A stretch of DNA of 64,000 nucleotides. Origin: Octopus vulgaris. Its lineage: Eukaryota. The position numbers were made by a program, and so were the translations under genes. Shown here in pieces: positions 2,197-55,949 of the stretch (position 1 is its first letter; every line of letters starts with the position of its first letter). The notes under the pieces were generated by a model. It did not search any database. It was not told where the DNA came from and saw only the letters and a list, made by a program, of their open reading frames with translations. Location of the stretch: positions 11,966,001-12,030,000 of the forward strand of contig OX597833.1 in assembly GCA_951406725.2 (NCBI GenBank), in the 5' to 3' direction.

Positions 2197-2342
2197 TCTA
2201 AAGATGATGTACAGTCTTATCACAGATTTTTAAAAAAGTTTTAATAGCATCACAGAGAAGGTGACTTAATTAAGTCACCTTCTCTGTGATGCTATTAAAA
2301 CTTTTTTAAAAATCTGTGATAAGACTGTACATCATCTTTAGA
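2197..2342. repeat. Perfect 146-bp palindrome without spacer
   Basis: Centre ggtgacttaa|ttaagtcacc at 2269/2270; arms match to the satellite start. Confidence 0.9.
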
Positions 2343-4806
2343 TCCATGAGCGTAAGTCCTTCGGCGCAATCCTGCGTAGATCCATGAGCGTAACTTCTTA
2401 GGCGCAATCCTGCGTAGATCCATGAGCGTAAGTCCTTAGGCGCAATCCTGCGTAGATCCATGAGCGTAAGTCCTTAGGCGCAATCCTGCGTAGATCCATG
2501 AGCGTAAGTCCTTAGGCGCAATCCTGCGTAGATCCATGAGCGTAAGTCCTTAGGCGCAATCCTGCGTAGATCCATGAGCGTAGTCCTTAGGCGCAATCCT
2601 GCGTCGATCCATGAGCATAAGTCCTTAGGCGCAATCCTGCGTAGATCCATGAGCGTAAGTCCTAAGGCGCAATCCTGCGTAGATCCATGAGCGTAAGTCC
2701 TTAGGCGCAATCCTGCGTAGATCCATGAGCGTAAGTCCTTAGGCGCAATCCTGCGTAGATCCATGAGCGTAGTCCTTAGGCGCAATCCTGCGTCGATCCA
2801 TGAGCATAAGTCCTTAGGCGCAATCCTGCGTAGATCCATGAGCGTAAGTCCTTAGGTGCAATCCTGCGTAGATCCATGAGCGTAGTCCTTAGGCGCAATC
2901 CTGCGTCGATCCATGAGCATAAGTCCTTAGGCGCAATCCTGCGTAGATCCATGAGCGTAAGTCCTTAGGCGCAATCCTGCGTAGATCCATAAGCGTAAGT
3001 CCTTCGGCAAAATCCTGCGTAGATCCATGAGCGTAAGTCCTTAGGTGCAATCCTGCGTAGATCCATGAGCGTAAGTCCTTCGGCGAAATCCTGCGTAGAT
3101 CCATGAGCGTAAGTCCTAAGGCGCAATCCTGCGTAGATCCATAAGCGTAAGTCCTTCGGTGCAATCCTGCGTAGATCCATGAGCGTAAGTCCTTAGGCGC
3201 AATCCTGCGTAGATCCATAAGCGTAAGTCCTTCGGCGCAATCCTGCGTAGATCCATGAGCATAAGTCCTTAGGCGCAATCCTGCGTAGATCCATGACCGT
3301 AAGTCCTTCGGCGCAATCCTGCGTAGATCCATGAGCGTAAGTCCTTAGGCGCAATCCTGCGTAGATCCATGAGCGTAAGTCTTTAGGCGAAATCCTGCAT
3401 AGATCCATGAGCATAAGTCCTTAGGCGCAATCCTGCGTAGATCCACGAGCGTAAGTCCTTAGGCGCAATCCTGCGTAGATCCATGAGCGTAAGTCCTTAG
3501 GCGCAATGCTGCGTAGATCCATGAGCGTAAGTCTTTAGGCGCAATCCTGCGTAGATCCATGAGCGTAAGTCCTTAGGCGCAATCCTGCGTAGATCCATGA
3601 ACGTAAGTACTTAGGTGCAATCCTGTGTAGATCCATGAGCGGAAATCCTAAGACGCAATCCTGCGTAGATCCATGAGCGTAAGTCCTTAGGCGCAATCCT
3701 GCGTAGATCCATGAGCGTAAGTCCTTAGGTGCAATCCTGCGTAGATCCATGAGCGTAAGTCCTTAGGCGCAATCATGCGTAGATCCATTAGCGCAAGTCC
3801 TTAGACGCAATCCTGCGATGTCCATGAGCGTAATTCCTTAGGCGCAATCCTGCGTAGATCCATGAGCGTAAGTCCTTAGGCGCAATCCTGCGTAGATCCA
3901 TGAGCGTAAGTCCTTAGGCGCAATCCTGCGTAGATCCATGAGCGTAAGTCCTTAGGCGCAATCCTGCGTAGATCCATGAGCATAAGTCCTTAGGCGCAAT
4001 CCTGCGTAGATCCATGAGCGTAAGTCCTTCGGCGAAATCCTGCGTAGATCCATGAGCGTAAGTCCTTAGGCGCAATCCTGCGTAGATCCATGAGCATAAG
4101 TCCTTAGGCGCAATCCTGCGTAGATCCATGAGCGTAAGTCCTTCGGCGCAATCCTGCGTCGATCCATGAGCGTAAGTCCTTAGGCGCAATCCTGCGTAGA
4201 TCCATGAGCGTAAGTCCTTAGGTGCAATCCTGCGTAGATCCATGAGCGTAAGTCCTTCGGCGCAATCCTGCGTAGATACATGAGCATTAGTCCTTAGGTG
4301 CAATCCTGCGTAGATCCATGAGCGTAAGTCCTTAGGCGCAATCCTGCGTCGATCCATGAGCGTAAGTCCTTAGGTGCAATCCTGCGTAGATCCATGAGCA
4401 TAAGTCCTTAGGCGCAATCCTGCGTAGATCCATGAGCGTAAGTCCTTAGGCGCAATCCTGCGTAGATCCATGAGCGTAAGTCCTTAGGCGCAATCCTGCG
4501 TAGATCCATGAGCGTAAGTCCTTAGGCGCAATCCTGCGTAGATCCATGAGCGTAAGTCCTTAGGCGCAATCCTGCGTAGATCCATGAGCGTAAGTCCTTA
4601 GGCGCAATCCTGCGTAGATCCACGAGCGTAAGTCCTTAGGCGCAATCCTGCGTAGATCCATGAGCGTAAGTCCTTAGGCGCAATCCTGCGTAGATCCATG
4701 AGCGTAAGTCCTTAGGCGCAATCCTGCGTCGATCCATGAGCGTAAGTCTTTAGGCGCAATCCTGCGTAGATCCACGAGCGAAAGTCCTTAGGTGCAATTC
4801 TAAGGG
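2339..4806. repeat. 38-bp tandem satellite, ~65 copies
   Basis: Unit tagatccatgagcgtaagtccttaggcgcaatcctgcg repeated head-to-tail with few variants. Confidence 0.97.
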
Positions 4807-7795: not shown

Positions 7796-8203
7796 TAGGC
7801 GCAGCAGTGGCTGTGTGGTAAGTAGCTTGCTAACTAATCTCATGGTTCCGGGTTCAGTCCCACTGCGCGGCATCTTGGGTAAGTGTCTTCTGCTATAGCT
7901 CCGGGCCGACCAATGCCTTGTGAGTGGATTTGGTAGACGGAAACTGAAAGAAGTGATATATGTGTTGTATATATATATATGTGTGTGTATGTGTGTGTGT
8001 TTGTGTGTGTGTGTGTTTGTCCCCCTAGCATTGCTTGACAACCGATGCTGGTGTGTTTACGTCCCCGTCACTTAGCGGTTCGGCAAAAGAGACCGATAGA
8101 ATAAGTACTGGGCTTACAAAGAAAAAGTCCCGGGGTCGATTTGCTCGACTAAAGGCGGTGCTCCAGCATGGCCGCAGTCAAATGACTGAAACAAGTAAAA
8201 GAG
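7796..8203 (+). mobile_element. SINE family A, full length
   Basis: Same head/core/tail as 6999-7433. Confidence 0.92.
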
Positions 8204-10601: not shown

Positions 10602-11010
10602 TCTTCTTCTATATATATAAAACTGTAGTTGTGTGAGTGTCTGTCCCCTTCGATTTAGATTCCTAACTACTCCCACATTTTGCGGTGCAGTGTAACCAAA
10701 AGCGGGTATCTTATAGTCGTGATTCATATCGAGCCCTTCTGGGTATTAGCGCGCGTCTACGATGAGTCTACGATTTAAAAAGAAAAAAAACCCATCATTT
10801 TTTCCCATTTTTAATGCATTTTTTGCTATTATATAAGGGAAGTAACTCTCTAAAAATGTATTATTAAATCTCAGAACGTAAAAAAAGCTACAGTAACACC
10901 CCCCCTTTGTGGTTAGCCATATTGAGATGGTTATTATACTTTACATCTCTAAAAATGCTTATATAGTTATTTCCCTTACAAACCCGAGCAACGCCGGGGG
11001 ATACTGCTAG
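10602..11010 (+). mobile_element. Non-autonomous Helitron
   Basis: 5' TC, subterminal GC-rich hairpin cccgagcaacgccggg, 3' CTAG, inserted between A and T, no TSD. Confidence 0.85.
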
Positions 11011-11123
11011 TTACATTATATAATTAGCTCAGTTTCATTAACATATGCAGTATTAGCAATCTGAATTCAACTCATTCATTTCACTTGGAAGGTGATGTTA
11101 TTAAAGTTTTACTACATATCTAA

Positions 11124-13194: not shown

Positions 13195-13570
13195 TTATCG
13201 TTAAGCTAACATGGAAGTCCAGGAAAATAGGATGAATGCTGCTGTTGATTAGCTCCAAGAGGCCATCGCCTCTAGCTAGCTATGTGACACACAAACCTGT
13301 GTCCATTACAACCTTCGAACAGGGGAGGTCAGTAGCGACACCTACTGGATTCAGCTACTCCACATTGATAAGGGGCAATCACCTCGAGACTAGTCTGTAA
13401 ATTTGTAAGGCCAGCAAGGGGAAGCTGATGACCTCCCCTGTTCGAAGGTTGTAATGGAAACAGGTTTGTGTGTCACATAGTTAGGTAGAGGCAATGGCCT
13501 CTTGGAGCTAATCAACGGGCAGCATTCGTCCTATTTTCCTGGATGGCCTTGTTAGCTTGGTGATAGCTAT
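13195..13570. mobile_element. Inverted-repeat PLE-like remnant
   Basis: Arms ~13219-13331 and ~13428-13541; spacer holds a hammerhead-like fold. Confidence 0.6.
13362..13398 (+). ncRNA. Minimal hammerhead-like motif, U3:A8 variant
   Basis: ACA TTGATAA GGGG-CAATCA-CCTC GAGA CTAG TC TGT; palindromic loop III CTAG; GAAA altered to GAGA. Confidence 0.55.
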
Positions 13571-14829: not shown

Positions 14830-15309
14830 ACGTTTATATATATTTGTTGTGCAAGATTTTCTATGTGAAGTCGTGTGTTGAGACAGATATTGTTATATTT
14901 CGGAATGGTCATTTTGCCAGTTTAGCCAATAAAAACACACGTACTATATATTTGGTGTTATTTATTTTTTACATTAATCTTAATCTTATTTCGGCCAGAG
15001 TTCTTTCGTCACACTCCTGTGACCGCATCAGTGGTCCTTTGTTTTCTTCTTTCTTATTTGTGTCTCTCCTTACTAACCGTCAGCCATTTTGTATTTCTGA
15101 CGGTTAGTAAGGAGAGACACAAATAAGAAAGAAGAAAACAAAGGACCACTGATGCGGTCACAGGAGTGTGACGAAAGAACTCTGGCCGAAATAAGATTAA
15201 GATTAATGTAAAAAATAAATAACACCGAAGCAAAATAACACCAAATATATAGTGCGTATGTTTTTATTGGCTAAACTGGCAAAATGACCATTCCGAAATA
15301 TAACAATAT
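14830..15309. mobile_element. Palindromic PLE-like remnant
   Basis: Arms ~14887-15083 and ~15097-15309; same family at 52714-52930. Confidence 0.7.
15146..15185 (+). ncRNA. Hammerhead-like motif with A9C core (mirror on minus at 14995-15034)
   Basis: CCA CTGATGC G GTCAC-AGGAGT-GTGAC GAAA GAAC TC TGG. Confidence 0.6.
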
Positions 15310-24788: not shown

Positions 24789-25003
24789 GTGTGTATATGT
24801 TTGTGTGTCTGTGTTTGTCCCCCCACCCCAAACATCACTTGACAACCGATGCTGGTGTGTTTACGTTCCCGTAACTTAGCGGTTCGGCTAAAGAGACCGA
24901 TAGAATAAGTACTAGGTTCACAAAGAATAAGTCCCTAAAGGCGGTGCTCCAGCATGGCCGTAGTCAAACGACTGAAACAAGTAAAAGAATAAAAGAATAA
25001 AAG
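24138..25003 (+). mobile_element. SINE family A with a nested foldback element
   Basis: Head 24138-24301, tail 24790-25003. Confidence 0.88.
24361..24722. mobile_element. Non-autonomous foldback element with ~65-bp-arm hairpin (24579-24722)
   Basis: Near-perfect inverted repeat around tcgctttcgctc; second short IR atttattacac/gtgtaataaat. Confidence 0.6.
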
Positions 25004-25865
25004 TTGTTCCACGAGGAACAAAAGTGGACGAGCTCAATGCTTCAATAAAGTCTTCTGTATTTTGGCATCATGTGAAAACACTTCAACTTTCAACAAATAT
25101 AAGATCGAGGCTTTCAAGACATCAATCAGCTGAACCTTTTGCAGAGCAGCTTTTGAAACTCGGTGAAGAGAGAGTTCCTATTGATGATGAACAGTTTCTT
25201 ACACTCAATCCAATATGTAATTCAACTGACCCCGTCGATGATTTGATGTATGAAACATTTCCTAATCTTCTTCATAACTACAACAGTACAAATTACATCG
25301 GTGACAGAGCTATCCTGGCTCCAAATAATGTTCCTCTACATACCAGTAATAATATGCAATTGAATAAACTTCTACAACCCTTCACTTGTATACTCAATTG
25401 ACAGTATTCTGATGATCAGGATTAGTGTCAGCTATCCCATCGAATTCTTTTACTCACTACAACCACCAGGTACAGTTCCTCGTTGTCTTCAGTGGTTAAA
25501 AGGGACTCCTATTATGCTATTACATATTTTATCTCAACCAGAATTATGCAATGGTGCAAGATTAATTGTGCACAAATTTCATTGACCCAAACATTCTCAA
25601 AATGTTTCTAAGTCTGGCATAATAATCTCAAGTCACTCTATTTTTATTCACAGTACTTTCGTAAGGTATGTTTTGAACAATGCCTTGGTATTTGTAGCAT
25701 TCTTTGTTTGAAACAGGAGAAATAGTGTGACCATTGATATACAAGTTTTGGGTACGTGGGATTGATTTTTCTCCGTTCAGCAATCAAATACAAGCATTTC
25801 TTTTGGCCAAATTCCATTCCTATGTCAACTGAAAACTCTTGTTATCAATTTCAGTCGTTTTATTA

Positions 25866-30344: not shown

Positions 30345-30393
<49 letters not shown>

Positions 30394-30950
30394 TATTATA
30401 AAAGGCAGATTTTATCTGCCTCCCCTTTGGGAGTTATACAAATCTACAATATAGGATTTCTTCAATTACAATTTACCTAGCAGTTTTAAGAGTACAATGC
30501 ATCGCGTCATGCCAGGTCCAGTTTTTAAAATTTTAACTCCAATTAAGCAAAATTTACAGAAAACTCACATTCTGGTGTGTGTGTCAAATGCTTTTCTTAG
30601 TCTGGTTTACACCACACTAGCAGTTTTAAGAGTACAATGCATCGCGTCATGCCAGGTCCAGTTTTTAAAAAACGCACACACACAGTGGTTTACACCACAC
30701 GCAACGCACACACAATAAAATGAAACTAATTCACTTACTGTAGTGAGTGATTCTTTCACTCTGCCTCCCACTTCCTCTTTCCACACATAGACACGCAAAT
30801 ATATAAATAAAATTGTAAGCTAACGTGCGTGTGTGTGCGCGCGTGTGTGTGTGTGAGGGTGCGTGTGTGTGTGTGTGTGTGTGCGTGTGCGTGAGTGTGT
30901 GACAGGAAACTTTTTACGACGAATATAACACCTATATCCAAGTAGCAGAA

Positions 30951-31435
30951 AGATAAGACAGTAAGGTGTGATTTGAGGGAGATTTGGCTGCTATTTCTAC
31001 CATGTCTAGCTGCCATGTAGGGGTCTCCCTCATTGGCTCATACATACATATATACATAGATAAGACAGTAAGGTGTGATTTGGGGGAAATTTGGCTGCTA
31101 TTTCTAGCAGGTCTAGCTACCATGTAGAGGTCTCACCCATTGGCTCATACATACATATATACATAGATAAGAGAGTAGGGTGTGATTTGAGGGAGATTTG
31201 GCTGCTATTTCTACCATGTCTAGCTGCCATGTAGGGGTCTCACCCATTGGCTCATACATACATATATACATAGATAAGACAGTAAGGTGTGATTTGGGGG
31301 AAATTTGGCTGCTATTTCTACCATGTCTAGCTACCATGTAGAGGTCCCCCTCATTGGCTCATATATATATACATACATAAGACAGTAAGGTGTGATTTGA
31401 GGGAGATTTGGCTGCTGTTTCTACCAGGTCTGTTA
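30951..31435. repeat. 107-bp minisatellite, ~4.5 copies, alternating A/B variants
   Basis: Units near 30951, 31058, 31165, 31272, 31375. Confidence 0.9.
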
Positions 31436-31800
31436 GGCCTTCTCATGTAAACTCAAGCTTTCTCATGCCTTGAACATAAGACCAAAGCAGAGAATGTATT
31501 CTTTTATTCTTCTGCTTTTTCCAGCCATTGGTCTGTGGCCATGCTGGGGCAATGCCTTCAAGAATTGTAGTTTAATGAATCAACTCCAGTTTTATTTTTG
31601 TAAGCATTGTACTTATTCTATCTGTTTCCTTTGTCAAACCACTAGGTGACAGGGATGTAAACAAACCAACATTCGTTGTCAAGCAGTGGTGGAGGACAAT
31701 CACAAGCACAGACACGCACACACACACACACACATACATGCATACACATATACACACATACATACATACATACATATATATATATGTGTGTATATATATA

Positions 31801-32123
31801 TTGCAGCGTGGAAGGTGTTTGTAAGCCATTTAAGAAACACACAAAAACCGTTACATTCACTTCAACATTTAAATTTAATTTGCCAAAATATTTTCGTCGC
31901 TTTGAGACCGCGACCTGTTCACTGACAAAAATATCGTGCTAACAGGTCGCGGTCTCAAAGCGACGAAAATATTTTGACAAATTAAATTTAAATGTTGAAG
32001 TGAATCTAACGGTTTTTGTGTGTTTCTTAAATGGCTTATAAACACCTTCAACGCTGCAACTGTTTTCGTTCCAGCACACGATCTCAGATCAAGTCACTTG
32101 CTATGCAAGTACATCTCTGTAAC
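31801..32123. mobile_element. Palindromic PLE-like remnant (duplicate at ~37159-37481)
   Basis: Arms ~31801-31918 and ~31941-32058; flanked by (TA)n. Confidence 0.7.
31879..31929 (-). ncRNA. Minimal hammerhead-like motif, G3:C8 variant (duplicate 37237-37287)
   Basis: TTTGTCA GTGAACA G GTCGC-GGTCTCAAA-GCGAC GAAA ATAT TT TGGCAAA. Confidence 0.7.
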
Positions 32124-32221
32124 TATATATATATTTATATATATATATATATGTATATTGGTAAAAACAGTAAGATAACAAAAGAAAGAAAGAGACCTCA
32201 ATATTATGTAAATAGAGGAAA

Positions 32222-32616
32222 TCTTTATATATAAAAGTGAGGTTGTGTGTCTGTCTCCTACGATTTAGATTCCTAACTACTCCCACATTTTGCGGTGCAG
32301 TTTAACCAAAACCGGGTATCTTATAGTCGTGATTCATATCGAGACCGTCTGGGTATTAGCGCGCGTCTAAGATGAGTCTACGATTTAAAAAAAAATTTAC
32401 CATCAATTTTTCCCATTTTTAATCCATTTTTGACATATATAAGGGAAGTAACTCTCTAAAATTTATTATTAAATCTCAGAACGTAAAAAGCTACAGTAAC
32501 ACCCCTCCCCCTTTGTGGTTAGCCATATTGACATGGCTATTATACTTTACATCTCTAAAAATGCTTATATAATTATTTCCCTTACAAACCCGAGCAACGC
32601 CGGGCGATACTGCTAG
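32222..32616 (+). mobile_element. Non-autonomous Helitron (duplicate 37580-37972)
   Basis: A|TC...hairpin...CTAG|T. Confidence 0.85.
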
Positions 32617-32650
<34 letters not shown>

Positions 32651-32692
32651 CATGTGTGTGTGTGTATCTATCTATCTATCTTTATAAATAAA

Positions 32693-32726
<34 letters not shown>

Positions 32727-32727
<1 letters not shown>

Positions 32728-33629
32728 GATGTCTGTTCAATAAGTATCAGGACTGTTGCCATAGAAACGAAGCTAAAGCACGCAGAGTGAAGTCGCTCGG
32801 CAAAGATTGACCAAAATCTCTGCTGTGCATGCGCACAAAGTTTTAGCATTCAAGCTCACTTTCGCTGTTTACAGTAGTGCTTGGAAGGAAAGGTGTGTAA
32901 GGTGTGATCGTCGAATTGACCATGAAAGAGAAAGTTGCCATAGCGATACTTGTTTAGAGGCCTATGCAAAGTTGTAGAAAGTGTATGGAGAAGAGTGTAT
33001 GAGCCGCACACAAGTGTACATACGGTTCAAACGTTTCCAAGATGGCTGAAAAAATGTCGATATTGACGGACGTTCTAGAAGACTCGCAATTAGGAGAACT
33101 GAGAAAAAAAACATCGCAGTTGTGCGTGCAGCTGTGAGGGGATACCGTCCAATCACCATCCGTGAGTTATGAAATGATGTGGAGATTAGTTACGGTTCAG
33201 TTCAGTCCATCATCACTGAAGATTTGGGTACGAGACACGTGTCTGCCAATTTTATGCCAAAACTGCTTCAGCTGACCACAGAGACACTAGGGGTTTCAGT
33301 TGCACAAGATCTCCTTGATTGTGTCGAGAACGATGAAGACGCTTTTAAATCTTTGCGTAGACCTATGAGCAGGTATCGCCAAGCTTTTGGCAAAATTTGA
33401 TGCAGATTCCCAGCTCAATTTTCTCTGACATGGCCAATGCGATGGTTACACGCTATATCCCTTCTTTCCTTCCAAGCACTGCTGTAAACAGCGGAAGTGA
33501 GCTAGAAAATTAAGACTTAGTGCGCATTTACAGTAGAGTTCAAGATAAATCAATGCCAAGCAGTTTTACTTTGCATGCTTTAGCTTCGCGACTACGACAA
33601 CAGTCCGGATACTTATTGATCAGACCTCG
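32727..33629 (+). mobile_element. Internally deleted mariner element with long TIRs
   Basis: TA|CGA...TCG|TA; ~160-bp imperfect TIRs; relic ISYGSVQSIITEDLGTRHVSANFMPKLL. Confidence 0.85.
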
Positions 33630-34334
33630 TATACACATACACCCAGACACACACATTTATTCGTTCCAGCCTTCCTGTTGTGTCCCGTCATGACCACGAT
33701 CAGCAAGCTGGAACTCATATCTATCCATCTTTCTTTAAACATACACCTAACACCTATATGTATATGTTTATATAAACATACATATATATACTTATATATA
33801 TATATATATAGTAGATATATGTTACGAAAAGAAAATATAAAATACACGTGGAAATGTAAGGGTAAAATATGAATAAAATCAACGAAAATGCACATTGCAA
33901 ATAAAAAAAGGCTATTTATGACAGGTAACGACAAATATATTCATTTAGATTGACTGAGGTAGTAATACGAGTCATAAAAGTCATTATTATGAGATGATTA
34001 TAATATGATAATAAAGTAAGAGAATAAAACGGACCATGGTTTACGCAAAGCTATTCATCGTTTGAACAATATATATATATATATATATATATAGATAGAT
34101 AGATAGATAGATATATAGATAGATAGATAGATAGATACTATATATATATGTGTGTGTGTCTGTGTTTATATATGTGTCACCATATTTATCCGACTATCGA
34201 ATTTCCCTCACAAAGCATTGTTATCCCGAGGCGATGGGGGAAGGCACTTGTCCAATGTGCCAAGAAGTGGGATTGAAACTAGTCGTACATAGCTGCAAAT
34301 TGAACTCCTTTCCTGCAGGCACGTACTCACATAC

Positions 34335-34564
34335 TCTTACTCTTTTTTACTCTTTTACTTGTTTCAGTCATTTGACTGCAGCCATGCTGGAGCACCGCCT
34401 TTAGTCGAGCAAATCGACCCCGGGACTTATTCTTTGTAAGCCCAGTACTTATTCTATCGGTCTCTTTTGCCGAACCGCTAAGTGACGGGGACGTAAACAC
34501 ACCAGCATCGCTTGTCAAGCAATGCTAGAGGGACAAACACAGACACACAAGCATATACACAAAC

Positions 34565-34643
<79 letters not shown>

Positions 34644-34806
34644 GACAGGCTTCTTTCAGTTTCCGTCTACCAAATCCACTCACAAGGCTTTGGTCGGCCC
34701 GAGGCTATAGCAGAAGACACTTGCCCGAGTTGCCACGCAGTGGGACTGAACCCAGAACCATGTGGCTGGTTAGCAAGCTACTTACCACACAGCCACTCCT
34801 GCGCCT
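34335..34806 (-). mobile_element. SINE family A (duplicate 39745-40193)
   Basis: Family consensus. Confidence 0.9.
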
Positions 34807-34835
34807 ATGTAAATAAATAAACTAATATGTTTATG

Positions 34836-34867
<32 letters not shown>

Positions 34868-35872
34868 AACACGCTGAATGAATTGAAATTCATTGGATGA
34901 ACCCACAAACAAGCATACATATGCATAGATACATGCATTTGAATATATATGGGTGTTTGTTTATTGTTCATATAATTTATATGCGTAAAAGTTAAGAATA
35001 AAAGTTCAGAATAGATGTGTGAAATTTATATATTTTTTTACACTCTTTCGTGAAATAATACTGAAATTTATTTGGGAATAAAATTTTGTGGTGTCTGTAT
35101 ATGTGAGAATTCTATTGAATAAAATTATGCTGAATAGTGACTCATTTAAACATGAAATTGTGGTATTTCGACTTTTTTGTGCACTCTTATTTTATATTGC
35201 TTTGTTTTGCAAGATGTAATGTCAGAAATAATAGTGTTTTGTTTTCATATTTTAACTTGATTTATTCATTTCATAAAGATTCCTTATAGATTTTGTCTCA
35301 AAACAATGATAGTGCCTAGTTGTCGCGTAGAAGTGTACATAAAAGAAGTACACACGATTGTGCACAAATAAAAATATCCATAACTTGTTTAGGTCTTTTT
35401 GGACAGCCATGCGTGACAATTTCATAAGGTGTTAACAAAAACTGCAACTCGTCAGGTCTTTTCCCAACCACCGAGAGAACTACCTGTAGGTTATTTTGTC
35501 ATATCATGTCTAAATATGCATTTAATAATTACGTAAGCACGATATATAACTATAAATGCTTTGATTTACTGTACATTATATATGGCATTATAAGCACTAA
35601 GTTGCACGTTATTACTTATAATATCATGTTTTTTGTACAAACTGATATATATATATATTAATAATAAAATATTAGGGAATAAATCCAAACTTTCAGGGAA
35701 AAATCAGAGTTAAGATTAAATCCAATTTTATGGTATAAATATATTATATTATATTATATTAAATTAGAGATAAAACCACTATTAGGCAGATCAAACAATG
35801 AAAAACATAAGCCAATACATAAAATTAATTAATTTATATTATTTTAAATATATATCAAAAGTATTAAAAGTT

Positions 35873-36644
35873 CCAGACACCCCGCTAAGTACTTGACAGA
35901 CACTGACTTTGCTGACGACATCGCTCTTATCAGTGATTCTCTCTCCAATGCCCAGTCTCTTTTACAATCTCTTGAACAAGCCTCAAATTGCATAGGTCTT
36001 TACCTCAATGAGGCCAAAACTGAATACATAAACAAGTGCCTGTCCAACAGTGATTGCATCATCCATACTCTCAACAGTGCGCCTTTAGATATGGTTTCTG
36101 ATTATAAATATCTTGGGTCATACATATCATCATCTGGAAAATACTTTCTAACTAGAAAGGGTATGGCCTGGTCAGCCTGTAATGACATGCATAAGATCTG
36201 GTCATCAAATCTAAGTAGAGACTTCAAACTTGAAATATTCAAAGCCACAGTCGAACCAATTCTACTATATGGCTCAGAAACCTGGACGTTATCAAAGAAG
36301 CTTGAGAGGCGGTTGGATGGAACCTACACTCGCCTCCTTATGGGAGCTCAAAATCTCTCGTGGAAGCGCCATCCAACCAAAATGCAAATATATGGGAAAT
36401 TACCACCTGTGTCATCTCTTGTGAAAGGTAGGAGAGTCCAGTTTGCTGGACATTGTTGTAGAGCTGAAAAAGAAGTAATTTCTACTCTTCTCCTCTGGAA
36501 ACCATCTACTCGCAATACCAGAGGGCGCACACTCTCCTACCCTGATGTAATCTCCAAGGATACAGGCATCCAGCAACAGGACCTCCGTAATGCTATGATG
36601 GACCGTGAAGTCTGGCGTAACATAGTAAATTCCATTGTCTCGAC
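35873..36644 (+). mobile_element. RTE-clade LINE RT 3' fragment, cut at the duplication junction
   Basis: DFADDIAL, YKYLGS, LLYGSETW, FAGHC. Confidence 0.9.
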
Positions 36645-37972
36645 AGTAAGGTGTGATTTGGGGGAAATTTGGCTGCTATTTCTACCATGTCTAGCTACCA
36701 TGTAGAGGTCCCCCTCATTGGCTCATATATATATATACATACATAAGACAGTAAGGTGTGATTTGAGGGAGATTTGGCTGCTGTTTCTACCAGGTCTGTT
36801 AGGCCTTCTCATGTAAACTCAAGCTTTCTCATGCCTTGAACATAAGAGCAAAGCAGAGAATGTATTCTTTTATTCTTCTGCTTTTTCCAGCCATTGGTCT
36901 GTGGCCATGCTGGGGCAATGCCTTCAAGAATTGTAGTTTAATGAATCAACTCCAGTTTTATTTTTGTAAGCATTGTACTTATTCTATCTGTTTCCTTTGT
37001 CAAACCACTAGGTGACATGGATGTAAACAAACCAACATTCGTTGTCAAGCAGTGGTGGACGACAATCACAAGCACAGACACGCACACACACACACACATA
37101 CATGCATACACATATACACACATACATACATACATATATATATGTGTGTATATATATATTGCAGCGTGGAAGGTGTTTGTAAGCCATTTAAGAAACACAC
37201 AAAAACCGTTACATTCACTTCAACATTTAAATTTAATTTGCCAAAATATTTTCGTCGCTTTGAGACCGCGACCTGTTCACTGACAAAAATATCGTGCTAA
37301 CAGGTCGCGGTCTCAAAGCGACGAAAATATTTTGACAAATTAAATTTAAATGTTGAAGTGAATCTAACGGTTTTTGTGTGTTTCTTAAATGGCTTATAAA
37401 CACCTTCAACGCTGCAACTGTTTTCGTTCCAGCACACGATCTCAGATCAAGTCACTTGCTATGCAAGTACATCTCTGTAACTATATATATATTTATATAT
37501 ATATATATATGTATATTGGTAAAAACAGTAAGATAACAAAAGAAAGAAAGAGACCTCAATATTATGTAAATAGAGGAAATCTTTATATATAAAAGTGAGG
37601 TTGTGTGTCTGTCTCCTACGATTTAGATTCCTAACTACTCCCACATTTTGCGGTGCAGTTTAACCAAAACCGGGTATCTTATAGTCGTGATTCATATCGA
37701 GACCGTCTGGGTATTAGCGCGCGTCTAAGATGAGTCTACGATTTAAAAAAAAAATTACATCAATTTTTCCCATTTTTAATCCATTTTTGACATATATAAG
37801 GGAAGTAACTCTCTAAAATTTATTATTAAATCTCAGAACGTAAAAAGCTACAGTAACACCCCTCCCCTTTGTGGTTAGCCATATTGACATGGCTATTATA
37901 CTTTACATCTCTAAAAATGCTTATATAATTATTTCCCTTACAAACCCGAGCAACGCCGGGCGATACTGCTAG

Positions 37973-38004
<32 letters not shown>

Positions 38005-38046
38005 CATGTGTGTGTGTGTATCTATCTATCTATCTTTATAAATAAA

Positions 38047-38098
<52 letters not shown>

Positions 38099-38110
38099 TA
38101 TATATATATA

Positions 38111-39013
38111 CGATGTCTGTTCAATAAGTATCAGGACTGTTGCCATAGAAACGAAGCTAAAGCACGCAGAGTGAAGTCGCTCGGCAAAGATTGACCAAGA
38201 TCTCTGCTGTGCATGCGCACAAAGTTTTAGCATTCAAGCTCACTTTCGCTGTTTACAGTAGTGCTTGGAAGGAAAGGTGTGTAAGGTGTGATCGTCGAAT
38301 TGACCATGAAAGAGAAAGTTGCCATAGCGATACTTGTTTAGAGGCCTATGCAAAGTTGTAGAAAGTGTATGGAGAAGAGTGTATGAGCCGCACACAAGTG
38401 TACATACGGTTCAAACGTTTCCAAGATGGCTGAAAAAATGTCGATATTGACGGACGTTCTAGAAGACTCGCAATTAGGAGAACTGAGAAAAAAAACATCG
38501 CAGTTGTGCGTGCAGCTGTGAGGGGATACCGTCCAATCACCATCCGTGAGTTATGAAATGATGTGGAGATTAGTTACGGTTCAGTTCAGTCCATCATCAC
38601 TGAAGATTTGGGTACGAGACACGTGTCTGTCAATTTTATGCCAAAACTGCTTCAGCTGACCACAGAGACACTAGGGGTTTCAGTTGCACAAGATCTCCTT
38701 GATTGTGTCGAGAACGATGAAGACGCTTTTAAATCTTTGCGTAGACCTATGAGCAGGTATCGCCAAGCTTTTGGCAAAATTTGATGCAGATTCCCAGCTC
38801 AATTTTCTCTGACATGGCCAATGCGATGGTTACACGCTATATCCCTTCTTTCCTTCCAAGCACTGCTGTAAACAGCGGAAGTGAGCTAGAAAATTAAGAC
38901 TTAGTGCGCATTTACAGTAGAGTTCAAGATAAATCAATGCCAAGCAGTTTTACTTTGCATGCTTTAGCTTCGCGACTACGACAACAGTCCGGATACTTAT
39001 TGATCAGACCTCG
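38111..39013 (+). mobile_element. Duplicate of the deleted mariner element
   Basis: Near-identical to 32727-33629. Confidence 0.85.
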
Positions 39014-39446
39014 TATACACATACACCCAGACACACACATTTATTCGTTCCAGCCTTCCTGTTGTGTCCCGTCATGACCACGATCAGCAAGCTGGAACTC
39101 ATCTATCCATCTTTCTTTAAACATACACCTAACACCTATATGTATATGTTTATATAAACATACATATATATACTTATATATATATATATATAGTAGATAT
39201 ATGTTACGAAAAGAAAATATAAAATACACGTGGAAATGTAAGGGTAAAATATGAATAAAATCAACGAAAATGCACATTGCAAATAAAAAAAGGCTATTTA
39301 TGACAGGTAACGACAAATATATTCATTTAGATTGACTGAGGTAGTAATATGAGTCATAAAAGTCATTATTATGAGATGATTATAAGATGATAATAAAGTA
39401 AGAGAACAAAATGGACCATGGTTTACGCAAAGCTATTCATCGTTTG

Positions 39447-39497
<51 letters not shown>

Positions 39498-39506
39498 TAT
39501 ATATAT

Positions 39507-39537
<31 letters not shown>

Positions 39538-39544
39538 TAGATAC

Positions 39545-39579
<35 letters not shown>

Positions 39580-39982
39580 TTATATATGTGTCACCATATT
39601 TATCCGACTATCGAATTTCCCTCACAAAGCATTGTTATCCCGAGGCGATGGGGGAAGGCACTTGTCCAATGTGCCAAGAAGTGGGATTGAAACTAGTCGT
39701 ACATAGCTGCAAATTGAACTCCTTTCCTGCAGGCACGTACTCACATACTCTTACTCTTTTTTACTCTTTTACTTGTTTCAGTCATTTGACTGCAGCCATG
39801 CTGGATGGAGCACCGCCTTTAGTCGAGCAAATCGACCCCGGGACTTATTCTTTGTAAGCCCAGTACTTATTCTATCGGTCTCTTTTGCCGAACCGCTAAG
39901 TGACGGGGACGTAAACACACTAGCATCGCTTGTCAAGCAATGCTAGAGGGACAAACACAGACACACAAGCATATACACAAAC

Positions 39983-40027
<45 letters not shown>

Positions 40028-41261
40028 TACGACAGGCTTCTTTCAGTTTCCGTCTACCAAATCCACTCACAAGGCTTTGGTCGGCCCGAGGCTATAGCAG
40101 AAGACACTTGCCCGAGTTGCCACGCAGTGGGACTGAACTCAGAACCATGTGGCTGGTTAGCAAGCTACTTACCACATAGCCACTCCTGCGCCTATGTAAA
40201 TAAATAAACTAATATGTTTATGCACACACACACACACACACACACACGCACAAACACGCTGAATGAATTGAAATTCATTGGATGAATCCACAAACAAGCA
40301 TACATATGCATAGATACATGCATTTGAATATATATGGGTGTTTGTTTATTGTTCATATAATTTATATGCGTAAAAGTTAAGAATAAAAGTTCAGAATAGA
40401 TGTGTGAAATTTATATATTTTTTTACACTCTTTCGTGAAATAATACTGAAATTTATTTGGGAATAAAATTTTGTGGTGTCTGTATATGTGAGAATTCTAT
40501 TGAATAAAATTATGCTGAATAGTGACTCATTTAAACATGAAATTGTGGTATTTCGACTTTTTTGTGCACTCTTATTATTTATTGCTTTGTTTTGCAAGAT
40601 GTAATGTCAGAAATAATAGTGTTTTGTTTCCATATTTTAACTTGATTTATTCATTTCATAAAGATTCCTTATAGATTTTGTCTCAAAACAATGATAGTGC
40701 CTAGTTGTCGCGTAGAAGTGTACATAAAAGAAGTACACACGATTGTGCACAAATAAAAATATCCATAACTTGTTTAGGTCTTTTTGGACAGCCATGCGTG
40801 ACAATTTCATAAGGTGTTAACAAAAACTGCAACTCGTCAGGTCTTTTCCCAACCACCGAGAGAACTACCTGTAGGTTATTTTCTCATATCATGTCTAAAT
40901 ATGCATTTAATAATTACGTAAGCACGATATATAACTATAAATGCTTTGATTTACTGTACATTATATATGGCATTATAAGCACTAAGTTGCACGTTATTAC
41001 TTATAATATCATGTTTTTTGTACAAACTGATATATATATATATATATTAATAATAAAATATTAGGGAATAAATCCAAACTTACAGGGAAAAATCAGATTT
41101 AGGATTAAATCAAATTTTATGGTATAAATATATTATATTATATTATATTAAATTAGAGATAAAACCACTATTAGGCAGATCAAACAATGAAAAACATAAG
41201 CCAATACATAAAATTAATTAATTTATATTATTTTAAATATATATCAAAAGTATTAAAAGTT

Positions 41262-42054
41262 CCAGACACCCAGCTGACTACTTGACAGACACTGACTTTG
41301 CTGACGACATCGCTCTTATCAGTGATTCTCTCTCCAATGCCCAGTCTCTTTTACAATCTCTTGAACAAGCCTCAAATTGTATAGGTCTTTACCTCAATGA
41401 GGCCAAAACTGAATACATAAACAAGTGCCTGTCCAACAGTGATTGCATCATCCATACTCTCAACAGTGCGCCTTTAAATATGGTTTCTGATTATAAATAT
41501 CTTGGGTCATACATATCATCTGGAAAATACTTTCTAACTAGAAAGGGTATGGCCTGGTCAGCCTGTAATGACATGCATAAGATCTGGTCATCAAATCTAA
41601 GTAGAGACTTCAAACTTGAAATATTCAAAGCCACAGTCGAACCAATTCTACTATATGGCTCAGAAACCTGGACGTTATCAAAGAAGCTTGAGAGGCGGTT
41701 GGATGGAACCTACACTCGCCTCCTTATGGGAGCTCAAAATCTCTCGTGGAAGCGCCATCCAACCAAAATGCAAATATATGGGAAATTACCACCTGTGTCA
41801 TCTCTTGTGAAAGGTAGGAGAGTCCAGTTTGCTGGACATTGTTGTAGAGCTGAAAAAGAAGTAATTTCTACTCTTCTCCTCTGGAAACCATCTACTCGCA
41901 ATACCAGAGGGCGCACACTCTCCAACCCTGATGTAATCTCCAAGGATACAGGCATCCAGCAACAGGACCTCCGTAATGCTATGATGGACCGTGAAGTCTG
42001 GCGTAACATAGTAAATTCCATTGTCTCGACCACGGTCGAACAATGATGATGATG
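41262..42054 (+). mobile_element. 5'-truncated RTE-clade LINE with (GAT)n tail and 10-bp TSD
   Basis: 254-aa open RT C-terminus; TSD attaaaagtt at 41252-41261 and 42055-42064. Confidence 0.92.
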
Positions 42055-45822: not shown

Positions 45823-46459
45823 GGTAAGCAAGCTACTTATTCTACGGTCACTACTGCGCCTATGGCTACTTACCCCATTACTTATACATATATTTATACA
45901 CACGTACATAGAAACATACATACGTACGTACATGCATATATACACGCACAGAGTTTAGGAATGTTGAACTTTGTTGTATTTTGTTAACATGCTTTACGTT
46001 CACAGGTCAGCTTCTACTGGTTGTATTGCATTTTTTGGAAATCAGTGAAATAAATGATAGCTACATAATGTCACCCTTTTAAAGCCTTGTTATTATTCCA
46101 GTATTTGAAATCAATACCCAGAAGAACTTTATTTATATGAGAAATGTAAGCACTCTAAAGAATGCCATTAGTGATTTCAAATTTTGGCACCTTAAAAGAA
46201 TGCCCTTATTACAGCCCAAGATAGGACGGCGAGCTGCCAGAAATCGTTAGCATGCCGGGCAAATTGCTTAGCCTCATCTCGTCCATCTTTACGTTCCGAG
46301 TTCAAATTCTGCCGAGATTGACTTTGCTTTTCATTCTTCGGAGATGGACGAGAGAAGTAACAATAGAGCACTGGAGTTGATATAATCGACCTACCTCTCC
46401 GCCGAGCTTTCTAAACTTGTGTCAAAATTTGAGGCCATCATTACTACCCAGGATGAATA

Positions 46460-46833
46460 TCTTTATATAAAAAAGTGAGGTTGTGTGCTGTCTGTCTCCT
46501 ACGATTTAGATTCCTAACTACTCCCAAATTTTGCGGTGCAGTTTAACCAAAACCGGGTATCTTATAGTCGTGATTCATATCGAGCCCTTCTGGGTATTAG
46601 CGCGCGTCTACGATGAGTCTACGATTTAAAAAAAAATTACCATCAATTTTTCCCATTTTTAATGCATTTTTAGCATATATAAGGGAAGTAACTCTCTAAA
46701 AATTTATTATTAAACCTCAGAACGTAAAAAGCTACAGAAACCCCCCCCCCCCTTGTGGTTAGCCATATTGAGATGGCGATTATACTTTAAAAAATGCTTA
46801 TATAGTTATTTCCCTTACAAACCCGAGCAACGC
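46460..46833 (+). mobile_element. Non-autonomous Helitron, 3' truncated in the hairpin
   Basis: Same family as 32222-32616. Confidence 0.82.
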
Positions 46834-54896: not shown

Positions 54897-55069
54897 AAAT
54901 ATTAGGGAATAAATCCAAATTTACAGGAAAAAATCAGATTTAGGATTAAATCCAATTTTATAGTAAAATATTATATAATATTAATTCGAGACAAAACCAC
55001 TATTTTGCAAAACAAACAAGGAAAGACTTAATCAATACATAAAAATTTTAATATAAAGTAAATAAACCG

Positions 55070-55113
55070 CCACTACAATTGTTTCATGTCTTCAAATGAC
55101 ATTCGTCAGGTGG
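55070..55113 (-). ncRNA. Canonical minimal type I hammerhead ribozyme
   Basis: CCAC CTGACGA ATGTC-ATTTGAA-GACAT GAAA C-AATT-G TA GTGG. Confidence 0.85.
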
Positions 55114-55132
55114 ATTTCCGATCTTCGGAAAT

Positions 55133-55176
55133 CCACCTGACGAATGTCATTTGAAGACATGAAACGATTGTAGTGG
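55133..55176 (+). ncRNA. Canonical minimal type I hammerhead ribozyme
   Basis: CCAC CTGACGA ATGTC-ATTTGAA-GACAT GAAA C-GATT-G TA GTGG; predicted cut after A55172. Confidence 0.85.
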
Positions 55177-55949
55177 CGGTTTATTTATTTTATATTAAAA
55201 TTTTTATGCATTGATTAAGTCTTTCCTTGTTTGTTTTGCAAAATAGTGGTTTTGTCTCGAATTATATATATATATATATATATATATAGTCATGCATATA
55301 TATTTGTATGTACGTATATATATTTATATAATCATGCATATATATATATATTCATATACACACATATATATGTGTGTGTGTGTCTATGTGTATGTGTGTA
55401 TGCGTGTGTGCGTGTGTATGGGTGTGTGCGTATGTGTGTAAGCGTGTGTGTGCATGTGTGTGTGCGTGTGTGCGTGTGTATGGGTGTGTGCGTATGTGTG
55501 TAAGCGTGTGTGTGCATGTGTGTGTGTATGTGTGTGTACGCGTGTGTGTGTGTGAGTGTGTATTCAACATGATGTCTTGGTGGTAACCCGTGTTGAATTT
55601 ATGCTATTGAAAATCGCGAAGAAAATCGGAAACAGGTCGGAGTAATCTGAAATCGTAGCGATTTTATACCTCAAAATTTTCAGTATATCACATAGAAGTA
55701 TACTTTCGTTACGTAGCATGGTTTAAAAGAGTTTCTAAGACCCACAGGTTCTAAGAAGAATCTGAATCTACAAATATAAACTGCACAACAGCAGCTTCTT
55801 AGAGTAACACTCCAACGAACCTATATATTTTTTAAAATTGGTGCAAAACTTCTTAGATAAGTTTACCTTCTCAAGTAAACTCTCATCTAATATCTCGACG
55901 AGATCTTTGTTTACATATCTGTTATACACTCTTAAACTCGGGGAACTAT

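Follow-up and report, generated by a model that had tools for sequence, protein, structure and literature searches.

Positions 3 and 8 of the hammerhead core form a base pair, as the laboratory swap G3:C8 has proven. The closest described natural systems are the minimal hammerheads of Penelope-like elements (PLEs), which, in the sections of Cervera and de la Pena (2014; PMC4209133) considered here, have a type I layout, a bulge before stem II, a G10.1-C11.1 pair, a tiny palindromic stem III and a stem I of 4-5 bp. These hammerheads lie in both pseudo-LTRs (pLTRs) of their elements, occur as thousands of solo copies and as opposite-strand pairs, and are weak even when canonical; the 3-8 pairs given in the same sections, including that of a Schistosoma variant, are C3-G8 and U3-A8. 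Natural covariation of the 3-8 pair was reported by Perreault et al. (2011; PMC3088659), with U3-A8 the only natural combination named in the part of that work covered here. Cleavage by a PLE hammerhead is protein-assisted, and an engineered C3G/G8C double mutant partly restores it (Frangieh et al., 2024; PMC11167929). In the element of that study, PAc of Anolis, which belongs to the Penelope/Poseidon group, the hammerhead adjoins the ORF start, targets are AT-rich, priming occurs on both strands, and two internal reverse transcription (RT) start sites define the tail; insertion uses uncleaved RNA, cleavage not being needed for it (PMC11167929). Elements of the Neptune/Nematis type, as presented in the consulted parts of PMC8557442, encode an RT followed by a CX2-5CxxC linker and a GIY-YIG domain with CCHH, and show (TA)n targets, an inverted upstream copy and a one-sided tail.

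In the window, i.e., the whole stretch of 64,000 nucleotides of Octopus vulgaris DNA analysed here, the literal core CUGANGA is absent from the motif under study, whose core is GUGAACA; Watson-Crick complementarity between positions 3 and 8 is present as G3:C8 (Table 1). The bulge, the G10.1-C11.1 pair and the short palindromic stem III are all present and match the PLE minimal hammerhead as described in the sections of PMC4209133 considered, from which the octopus family differs in its G3:C8 pair and in a stem I of 7 bp rather than 4-5 bp. The sequence-only reading had proposed a minus-strand hammerhead with an exact C3:G8 to G3:C8 inversion, an extra G before stem II, a 7-bp stem I whose perfect counterpart lies in the other arm, a 5-bp stem II, an intact GAAA, an ATAT loop III and a UUU site, and rereading of the sequence located every one of these elements where it had been placed. 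Stems I and II formed when the isolated strand was folded (-13.9 kcal/mol, z -2.23), whereas with 13 extra upstream bases the centre of the palindrome competed with stem I. A descriptor for G3:C8 minimal hammerheads matched the window twice, at the locus and at its duplicate, and matched none of 300 block shuffles. A search of the window against Rfam returned nothing at gathering score, and a PDB sequence search returned weak unrelated matches only.

Table 1. Features of the locus and related motifs; positions are those of the window unless locus names are given.
Feature	Position	Strand	Basis or remark
Type I minimal hammerhead motif, G3:C8 core	31879..31929	-	sequence, fold, descriptor
Stem I 5' strand TTTGTCA	31929-31923	-	sequence
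Core GTGAACA = G3-U4-G5-A6-A7-C8-A9	31916..31922	-	G3=31922, C8=31917
Extra (bulged) G before stem II	31915	-	sequence
Stem II GTCGC/GCGAC, 5 bp, begins G10.1-C11.1	31914-31910 / 31900-31896	-	9-nt loop
GAAA	31895-31892	-	sequence
ATAT, palindromic stem/loop III (A-ATAT-U)	31891-31888	-	sequence
U16.1 and U17	31887-31886	-	numbering by analogy with PMC4209133 (sections considered)
Predicted cut site	between 31886 and 31885	-	predicted by analogy
Stem I 3' strand TGGCAAA, one G-U pair	31885-31879	-	sequence
Perfect TGACAAA of the other arm	31975-31981	+	sequence
Short arm, pLTR copy with hammerhead and ORF start codon (31829-31827)	31801..31940	-	matches L261 5' pLTR/ORF start
Long arm, inverted pLTR copy, 5'-truncated inside the core	31941..32122	+	sequence, inverted-repeat comparison
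One-sided tail of ~60 nt, ORF 5' sequence	about 32060-32122	+	continues into ORF in L261, L262, L263
Second hammerhead copy	37237..37287	-	in local ~5.36-kb tandem duplication, insertion 37159-37480
Carrier, non-autonomous, Helitron-like, 2.2 kb, contains the palindrome	30391..32616	+	5' TC, 3' hairpin + CTAG, between A and T
Seven loci with GTGACCA/GTGATCA core	L415, L426, L428, L430, L434, L436, L444		decayed motifs

The element that contains the motif proved to be a Penelope insertion. In the near-full-length copy L261, the motif occurs at 3736 and at 7997, delimiting a unit of 4,261 bp with an ORF in between, so that a hammerhead lies in both pLTRs, as in the elements of PMC4209133 (sections considered). 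An inverted truncated copy lies upstream of this unit, L262 is arranged similarly, and longer family copies run upstream into the 3' UTR and ORF. Inspection of the family protein (P0001) identified RT motifs, the linker CX3CxxC and a CCHH-bearing GIY-YIG domain. Pfam gave no match for this protein itself, and its homologues, which carry RT labels, gave only sub-threshold matches to RVT_1 and GIY-YIG; among named proteins the closest homologue, at 57% identity, comes from Octopus vulgaris, and part of it matches the genome at 100%, which makes this species or a near relative the probable host. Translation showed interrupted ORFs in L261, L262 and L263. The motif thus sits in the pseudo-LTR of a 4.26-kb Penelope-like element encoding RT and GIY-YIG. 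Two other family copies lie at open frames, one beside the start of a frame that we take to resemble a dCMP deaminase (L055) and one at a frame that is presumably of C2H2 zinc-finger type (L057).

Domain architecture would assign the element to the Neptune/Nematis type without separating Neptune from Nematis, since its CX3CxxC linker fits CX2-5CxxC; (TA)n targets, an inverted upstream copy and a one-sided tail are shared with such elements as described in the consulted parts of PMC8557442, and the Octopus rows examined in the supplement of that work (2 of 4 occurrences) are Naiads. The octopus family resembles PAc (PMC11167929) in that the hammerhead adjoins the ORF start, targets are AT-rich and two 3' end points define a tail, and departs from that Penelope/Poseidon element in its CX3CxxC linker, an ORF that begins 57 nt after the predicted cut site and a tail of ~60 nt.

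The arms of the palindrome are 119 nt long and 97% complementary (31801-31919 / 31941-32059). On the plus strand, the arm begins within the core, so that G3-U4-G5 are missing; it is therefore not a second ribozyme, and the palindrome holds one complete motif. Counted from the cut site, family arms stop either at about +86 to +92 or at about +147 to +149, and the short arm at the locus ends at the first of these points. Insertions lie mostly in TA- or AT-rich DNA and are often head-to-head pairs of one long and one short arm. The two end points and the head-to-head pairs fit the RT start sites and both-strand priming of the Anolis element (PMC11167929), and the palindrome is an ordinary inverted-pair Penelope insertion with a one-sided tail. 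The sequence-only reading stands for the motif and its core inversion, but it had missed the type of insertion, namely an inverted Penelope pair captured by a Helitron-like element. We also considered a non-LTR retrozyme, which, according to the part of bioRxiv 10.64898/2026.07.22.740005 covered here, needs head-to-tail tandem hammerhead units, and rejected it for a head-to-head pair with one complete motif. Three further long self-inverted stretches, with arms 80-95% identical, occur in the window at 13203-13558, 14887-15309 and 54968-55281 and are possibly other head-to-head insertions.

Non-autonomous Helitrons have a 5' TC and a 3' hairpin plus CTRR and insert between A and T without duplication. 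The DNA surrounding the palindrome has such ends and is probably a Helitron-type transposon; the likeness is the carrier's only and not the ribozyme's. This context is shared by all 30 closest loci but by only 1 of 30 loci selected by their core, and among the 30 closest, the hairpin with CTAG is present in 23 and the exact TC-end motif in 8. The palindrome was probably captured and multiplied as DNA by the Helitron-like carrier. Because the carrier spread them, the identity among the closest copies reflects DNA amplification and not RNA selection; we accordingly discarded the identity of the 40 closest copies as a sign of selection, as these copies had been chosen for identity and 30 of 30 loci examined lie in the same carrier. 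The 3' 400 bp of the carrier (32222-32616) has its own TC start and also occurs separately at 10608-11022 and 46452-46833, which indicates that the carrier is a composite of Helitron-like units. A tandem duplication spanning 31278-42030, with units 97-98% identical, doubles the palindrome and places the duplicate hammerhead 5,358 bp from the first.

Other repeats and frames were seen in the window. It contains a 107-bp minisatellite (30951-31485) whose copy number differs between loci, and a 38-bp tandem array of about 2.4 kb occupies 2339-4798 of the window. Plus-strand frames of 285 and 269 aa at 35848-36705 and 41237-42046 appear to us to be the terminal part of a reverse transcriptase of the non-LTR (RTE-type) class, and a plus-strand frame of 138 aa at 24985-25401 presumably represents a fragment of a Helitron PIF1-type helicase.

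RNA reading through the insertion folds into one long hairpin (-209 kcal/mol). Because this hairpin would sequester the motif and the second arm is without G3-U4-G5, the copy at the locus is probably inert, a likely passenger in the Helitron-like element, and cleavage activity of this copy in place is quite improbable.

Having placed the motif in its element, we asked whether the G3:C8 core is a property of the family. In the genome searched (2.8 Gb), a loose G3:C8 pattern had 8,240 matches, compared with 4 for a reversed control, and a pattern blind to the core had 5,544. The sequence-only reading had proposed to check whether GTGAACA is the consensus of the genomic copies. Read by eye, 85 of the first 100 of the 5,544 core-blind matches carry GTGAACA; far from being missing in other copies, G3 and C8 occur together in 91 of these 100, and C3 in none. 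The same consensus was obtained with 86 arms that were picked by their 3' end and were long enough to span the core, with carrier-borne copies counted once: GTGAACA is present in 72/86, G3 in 83/86, C8 in 81/86 and both of these bases in about 80/86, with C3 in none, while U4, G5, A6, A9, G12-A13-A14, A15.1-U16.1 and H17 are kept in 81-86 of the 86. In four contig sets from four organism labels, no variant at positions 3 and 8 reached a frequency of 5% or more. The family also retains the remaining five core positions, GAAA, G10.1-C11.1, the bulge before stem II and a palindromic stem III. Stem I of the family consensus is perfect, the position of the G-U pair at the locus holding A in 77/86 arms and G in 9/86. 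Loop II varies, with a minor allele of at least 10% in 4 of 8 columns, partly through a 1-nt indel, and subfamilies differ in it. Columns with a frequent minor allele number 0/17 in the core and 4/49 in the downstream UTR (86 arms), and core conservation is weak evidence of constraint because the downstream UTR is nearly as constant. One family member, L065 (G000:C18:35457846), has C3:G8 in one arm and G3:C8 in the inverted partner arm, probably a chance double change, for which the rough expectation is about 0.5 among 5,544. The G3:C8 motif is genuine: a known ribozyme in a natural variant that characterises the whole family and lies where such hammerheads are expected in a genome.

We looked for the origin of the swap among related motifs. 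C3:G8 motifs with near-identical TGTCA/TGACA and GTCRC stems occur at L031, L064, L066-L068, L235 and L245, with a homologous ORF fragment upstream of the one at L235. Of 39 matches to a sister element (57% protein identity), 38 have C3:G8 and all have A9C. Because these same-stem relatives and the sister element keep C3:G8, sequence comparison makes it likely that G3:C8 is derived from C3:G8. The sister family (protein P0002; L275-L304, e.g., L281 near 2570, G000:C18:50376736-50380035) has several open frames of 1,311-1,312 aa and 2,354 exact matches to its 3' motif, and its older relatives carry A9, not C9. At least three canonical C3:G8 minimal-hammerhead families are present in the genome (L231-L260), some of them in head-to-head pairs. 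When other G3:C8 families were sought, 253 matches were obtained, compared with 107 for the control. At seven of 30 such loci (Table 1), a GTGACCA or GTGATCA core occurs with a similar stem II, and the motif is followed by unrelated sequence; pairing in stem I is 6/6 in two, 5/6 in two and 3-4/6 in three. These decayed motifs are suggestive of older G3:C8 lineages.

The 5' ends of insertions bear on the RNA that was copied. Our junction sample, from one contig, comprised 121 arms of the G3:C8 family and 84 of canonical families. Among the 121, 83 keep the core, 54 start at -66 to -50 from the cut and 6 reach further upstream. Family junctions showed no excess at the cut site (5/36 within 5 nt, p=0.39), and the 2 junctions located exactly there both have another possible explanation. 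The fixed 5' end is preceded by a branch-point-like CTAAC, a pyrimidine run and YAG (754 exact matches, including L261:3695-3725), a stretch that may serve as a 3' splice site, as an initiator or in both roles. The AG before ATGCAG is kept in 35/57 junctions, and no constant upstream exon was seen at the 5' junctions. In 16/31 junctions, a G replaces the C or T of the element (p=2.6e-6 relative to local G content, 0.0016 relative to 25%); these 31 remained of the 35 after removal of 4 junctions that continue upstream, and one of the 31 also continues upstream. Copying of the cap is known for other RTs. Together, the retained AG, the lack of a constant exon and the frequent non-templated G lead us to prefer a capped start over splicing, which we rejected as the cause of the fixed 5' end, so that an intron there is the less preferred reading. 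Most insertions were probably copied from uncleaved, capped RNA.

Our preferred explanation, to which we give about two chances in three, is that the family carries a PLE pLTR hammerhead with a G3:C8 core that cleaves weakly, aided by dimer formation or protein, and that the copy at this locus is an inert passenger in a Helitron-like element. Transcription would begin some 58 nt before the cut site. The protein of the element would nick AT-rich DNA and initiate reverse transcription at two internal sites a short way into the ORF, copying RNA that is uncleaved and probably capped as far as its 5' end; two such cDNAs would then join head to head, and one such pair would have landed in a Helitron-like element and subsequently multiplied as DNA. 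The swap would be a compensatory change kept in the source lineage, which is likely because the 3-8 pair needs pairing more than identity, and it probably lowers the rate. The family probably retains weak cleavage activity, a reading favoured by the reciprocal change at exactly the paired positions, the otherwise intact core and the partial rescue by the engineered double mutant. As for a dimer, the sequence allows a 6-bp AAUAUU stem III duplex, and co-folding of two copies gave another lowest-energy form.

The motif may instead be a catalytically dead relic, its fold kept for a promoter, protein binding or 5' UTR structure or simply by drift, and G3:C8 fixed without selection for cleavage. 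Insertions from uncleaved RNA, a cut site without junction signal and a core no more conserved within the family than the neighbouring UTR all speak for such a relic, as does the finding that another PLE inserts in vitro without needing cleavage (PMC11167929). The sister family, moreover, thrives with an uncompensated A9C in every match, which indicates that core changes may be tolerated here without function. However, two transversions at exactly the paired positions of an otherwise intact core are hard to obtain by drift, and the same core is found in the more divergent relatives L271 and L274, and possibly in older families, although cores have decayed in L263, L267, L269 and L272; we therefore regard loss of catalysis throughout the family as unlikely. 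Less likely again, in our view, is that the swap was selected as an attenuation, a slower ribozyme leaving more full-length capped 5' RNA for reverse transcription. Such selection would explain the very high number of solo pLTR copies, and the family's 8,240 matches compare with 1,821 (control 290) obtained when a similar pattern was applied to C3:G8 motifs in canonical order. Copy number has many causes, however, and the family count is partly Helitron-borne. The junctions near the cut site also point weakly in this direction, with an excess in the sister family (5/16, p=0.028) and none in the G3:C8 family, but the two families do not differ significantly (Fisher p=0.25 in range, 0.74 with all arms), and the sister is no clean control because of its A9C.

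We also considered the palindrome as a MITE or fold-back DNA element with an accidental hammerhead match. Inverted arms of 97% identity and the lack of an Rfam match would suit such an element, but the arms are unequal, junctions differ between insertions and many copies have a single arm. The sequence is, furthermore, the pLTR and ORF start of an RT-encoding element, and the descriptor did not occur in the 300 shuffles. The full elements L261 and L262 refute this reading, which we consider very improbable.

The sequence-only reading had called natural G3:C8 hammerheads uncommon. In the part of the literature whose text was searched here, no natural G3:C8 was found, and engineered cases only. 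Those cases are in PMC11167929 and, in the part of PMC3884650 considered, a single 'data not shown' remark; the sections of PMC6155905 and PMC2920678 covered contain no passage on natural G3:C8. The octopus family shares 3-8 covariation with the natural core variants of PMC3088659 but has G3:C8 in place of the U3-A8 named in the sections consulted, and what is a laboratory mutant in PAc (PMC11167929) is here the natural consensus. The chemistry is already known, Penelope-like elements usually have this arrangement, and the locus copy itself probably does nothing.

The fixation of G3:C8 in thousands of retrotransposon copies constitutes a natural confirmation of the 3-8 pair, and the family is a blind spot of the usual hammerhead search patterns. 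We consider doubtful the tentative proposition that a successful lineage of animal retrotransposons fixed an active natural G3:C8 hammerhead as a means of tuning the rate. If it were true, standard CUGANGA searches would be blind to such ribozymes, and the animal ribozyme census would miss thousands in each genome. Taken with the A9C sister family, the proposition would also suggest that the Penelope elements of this genome repeatedly weaken their ribozyme, keeping capped full-length RNA. With G3:C8, A9C and canonical versions in related elements, this one genome offers a test of what Penelope hammerheads do.
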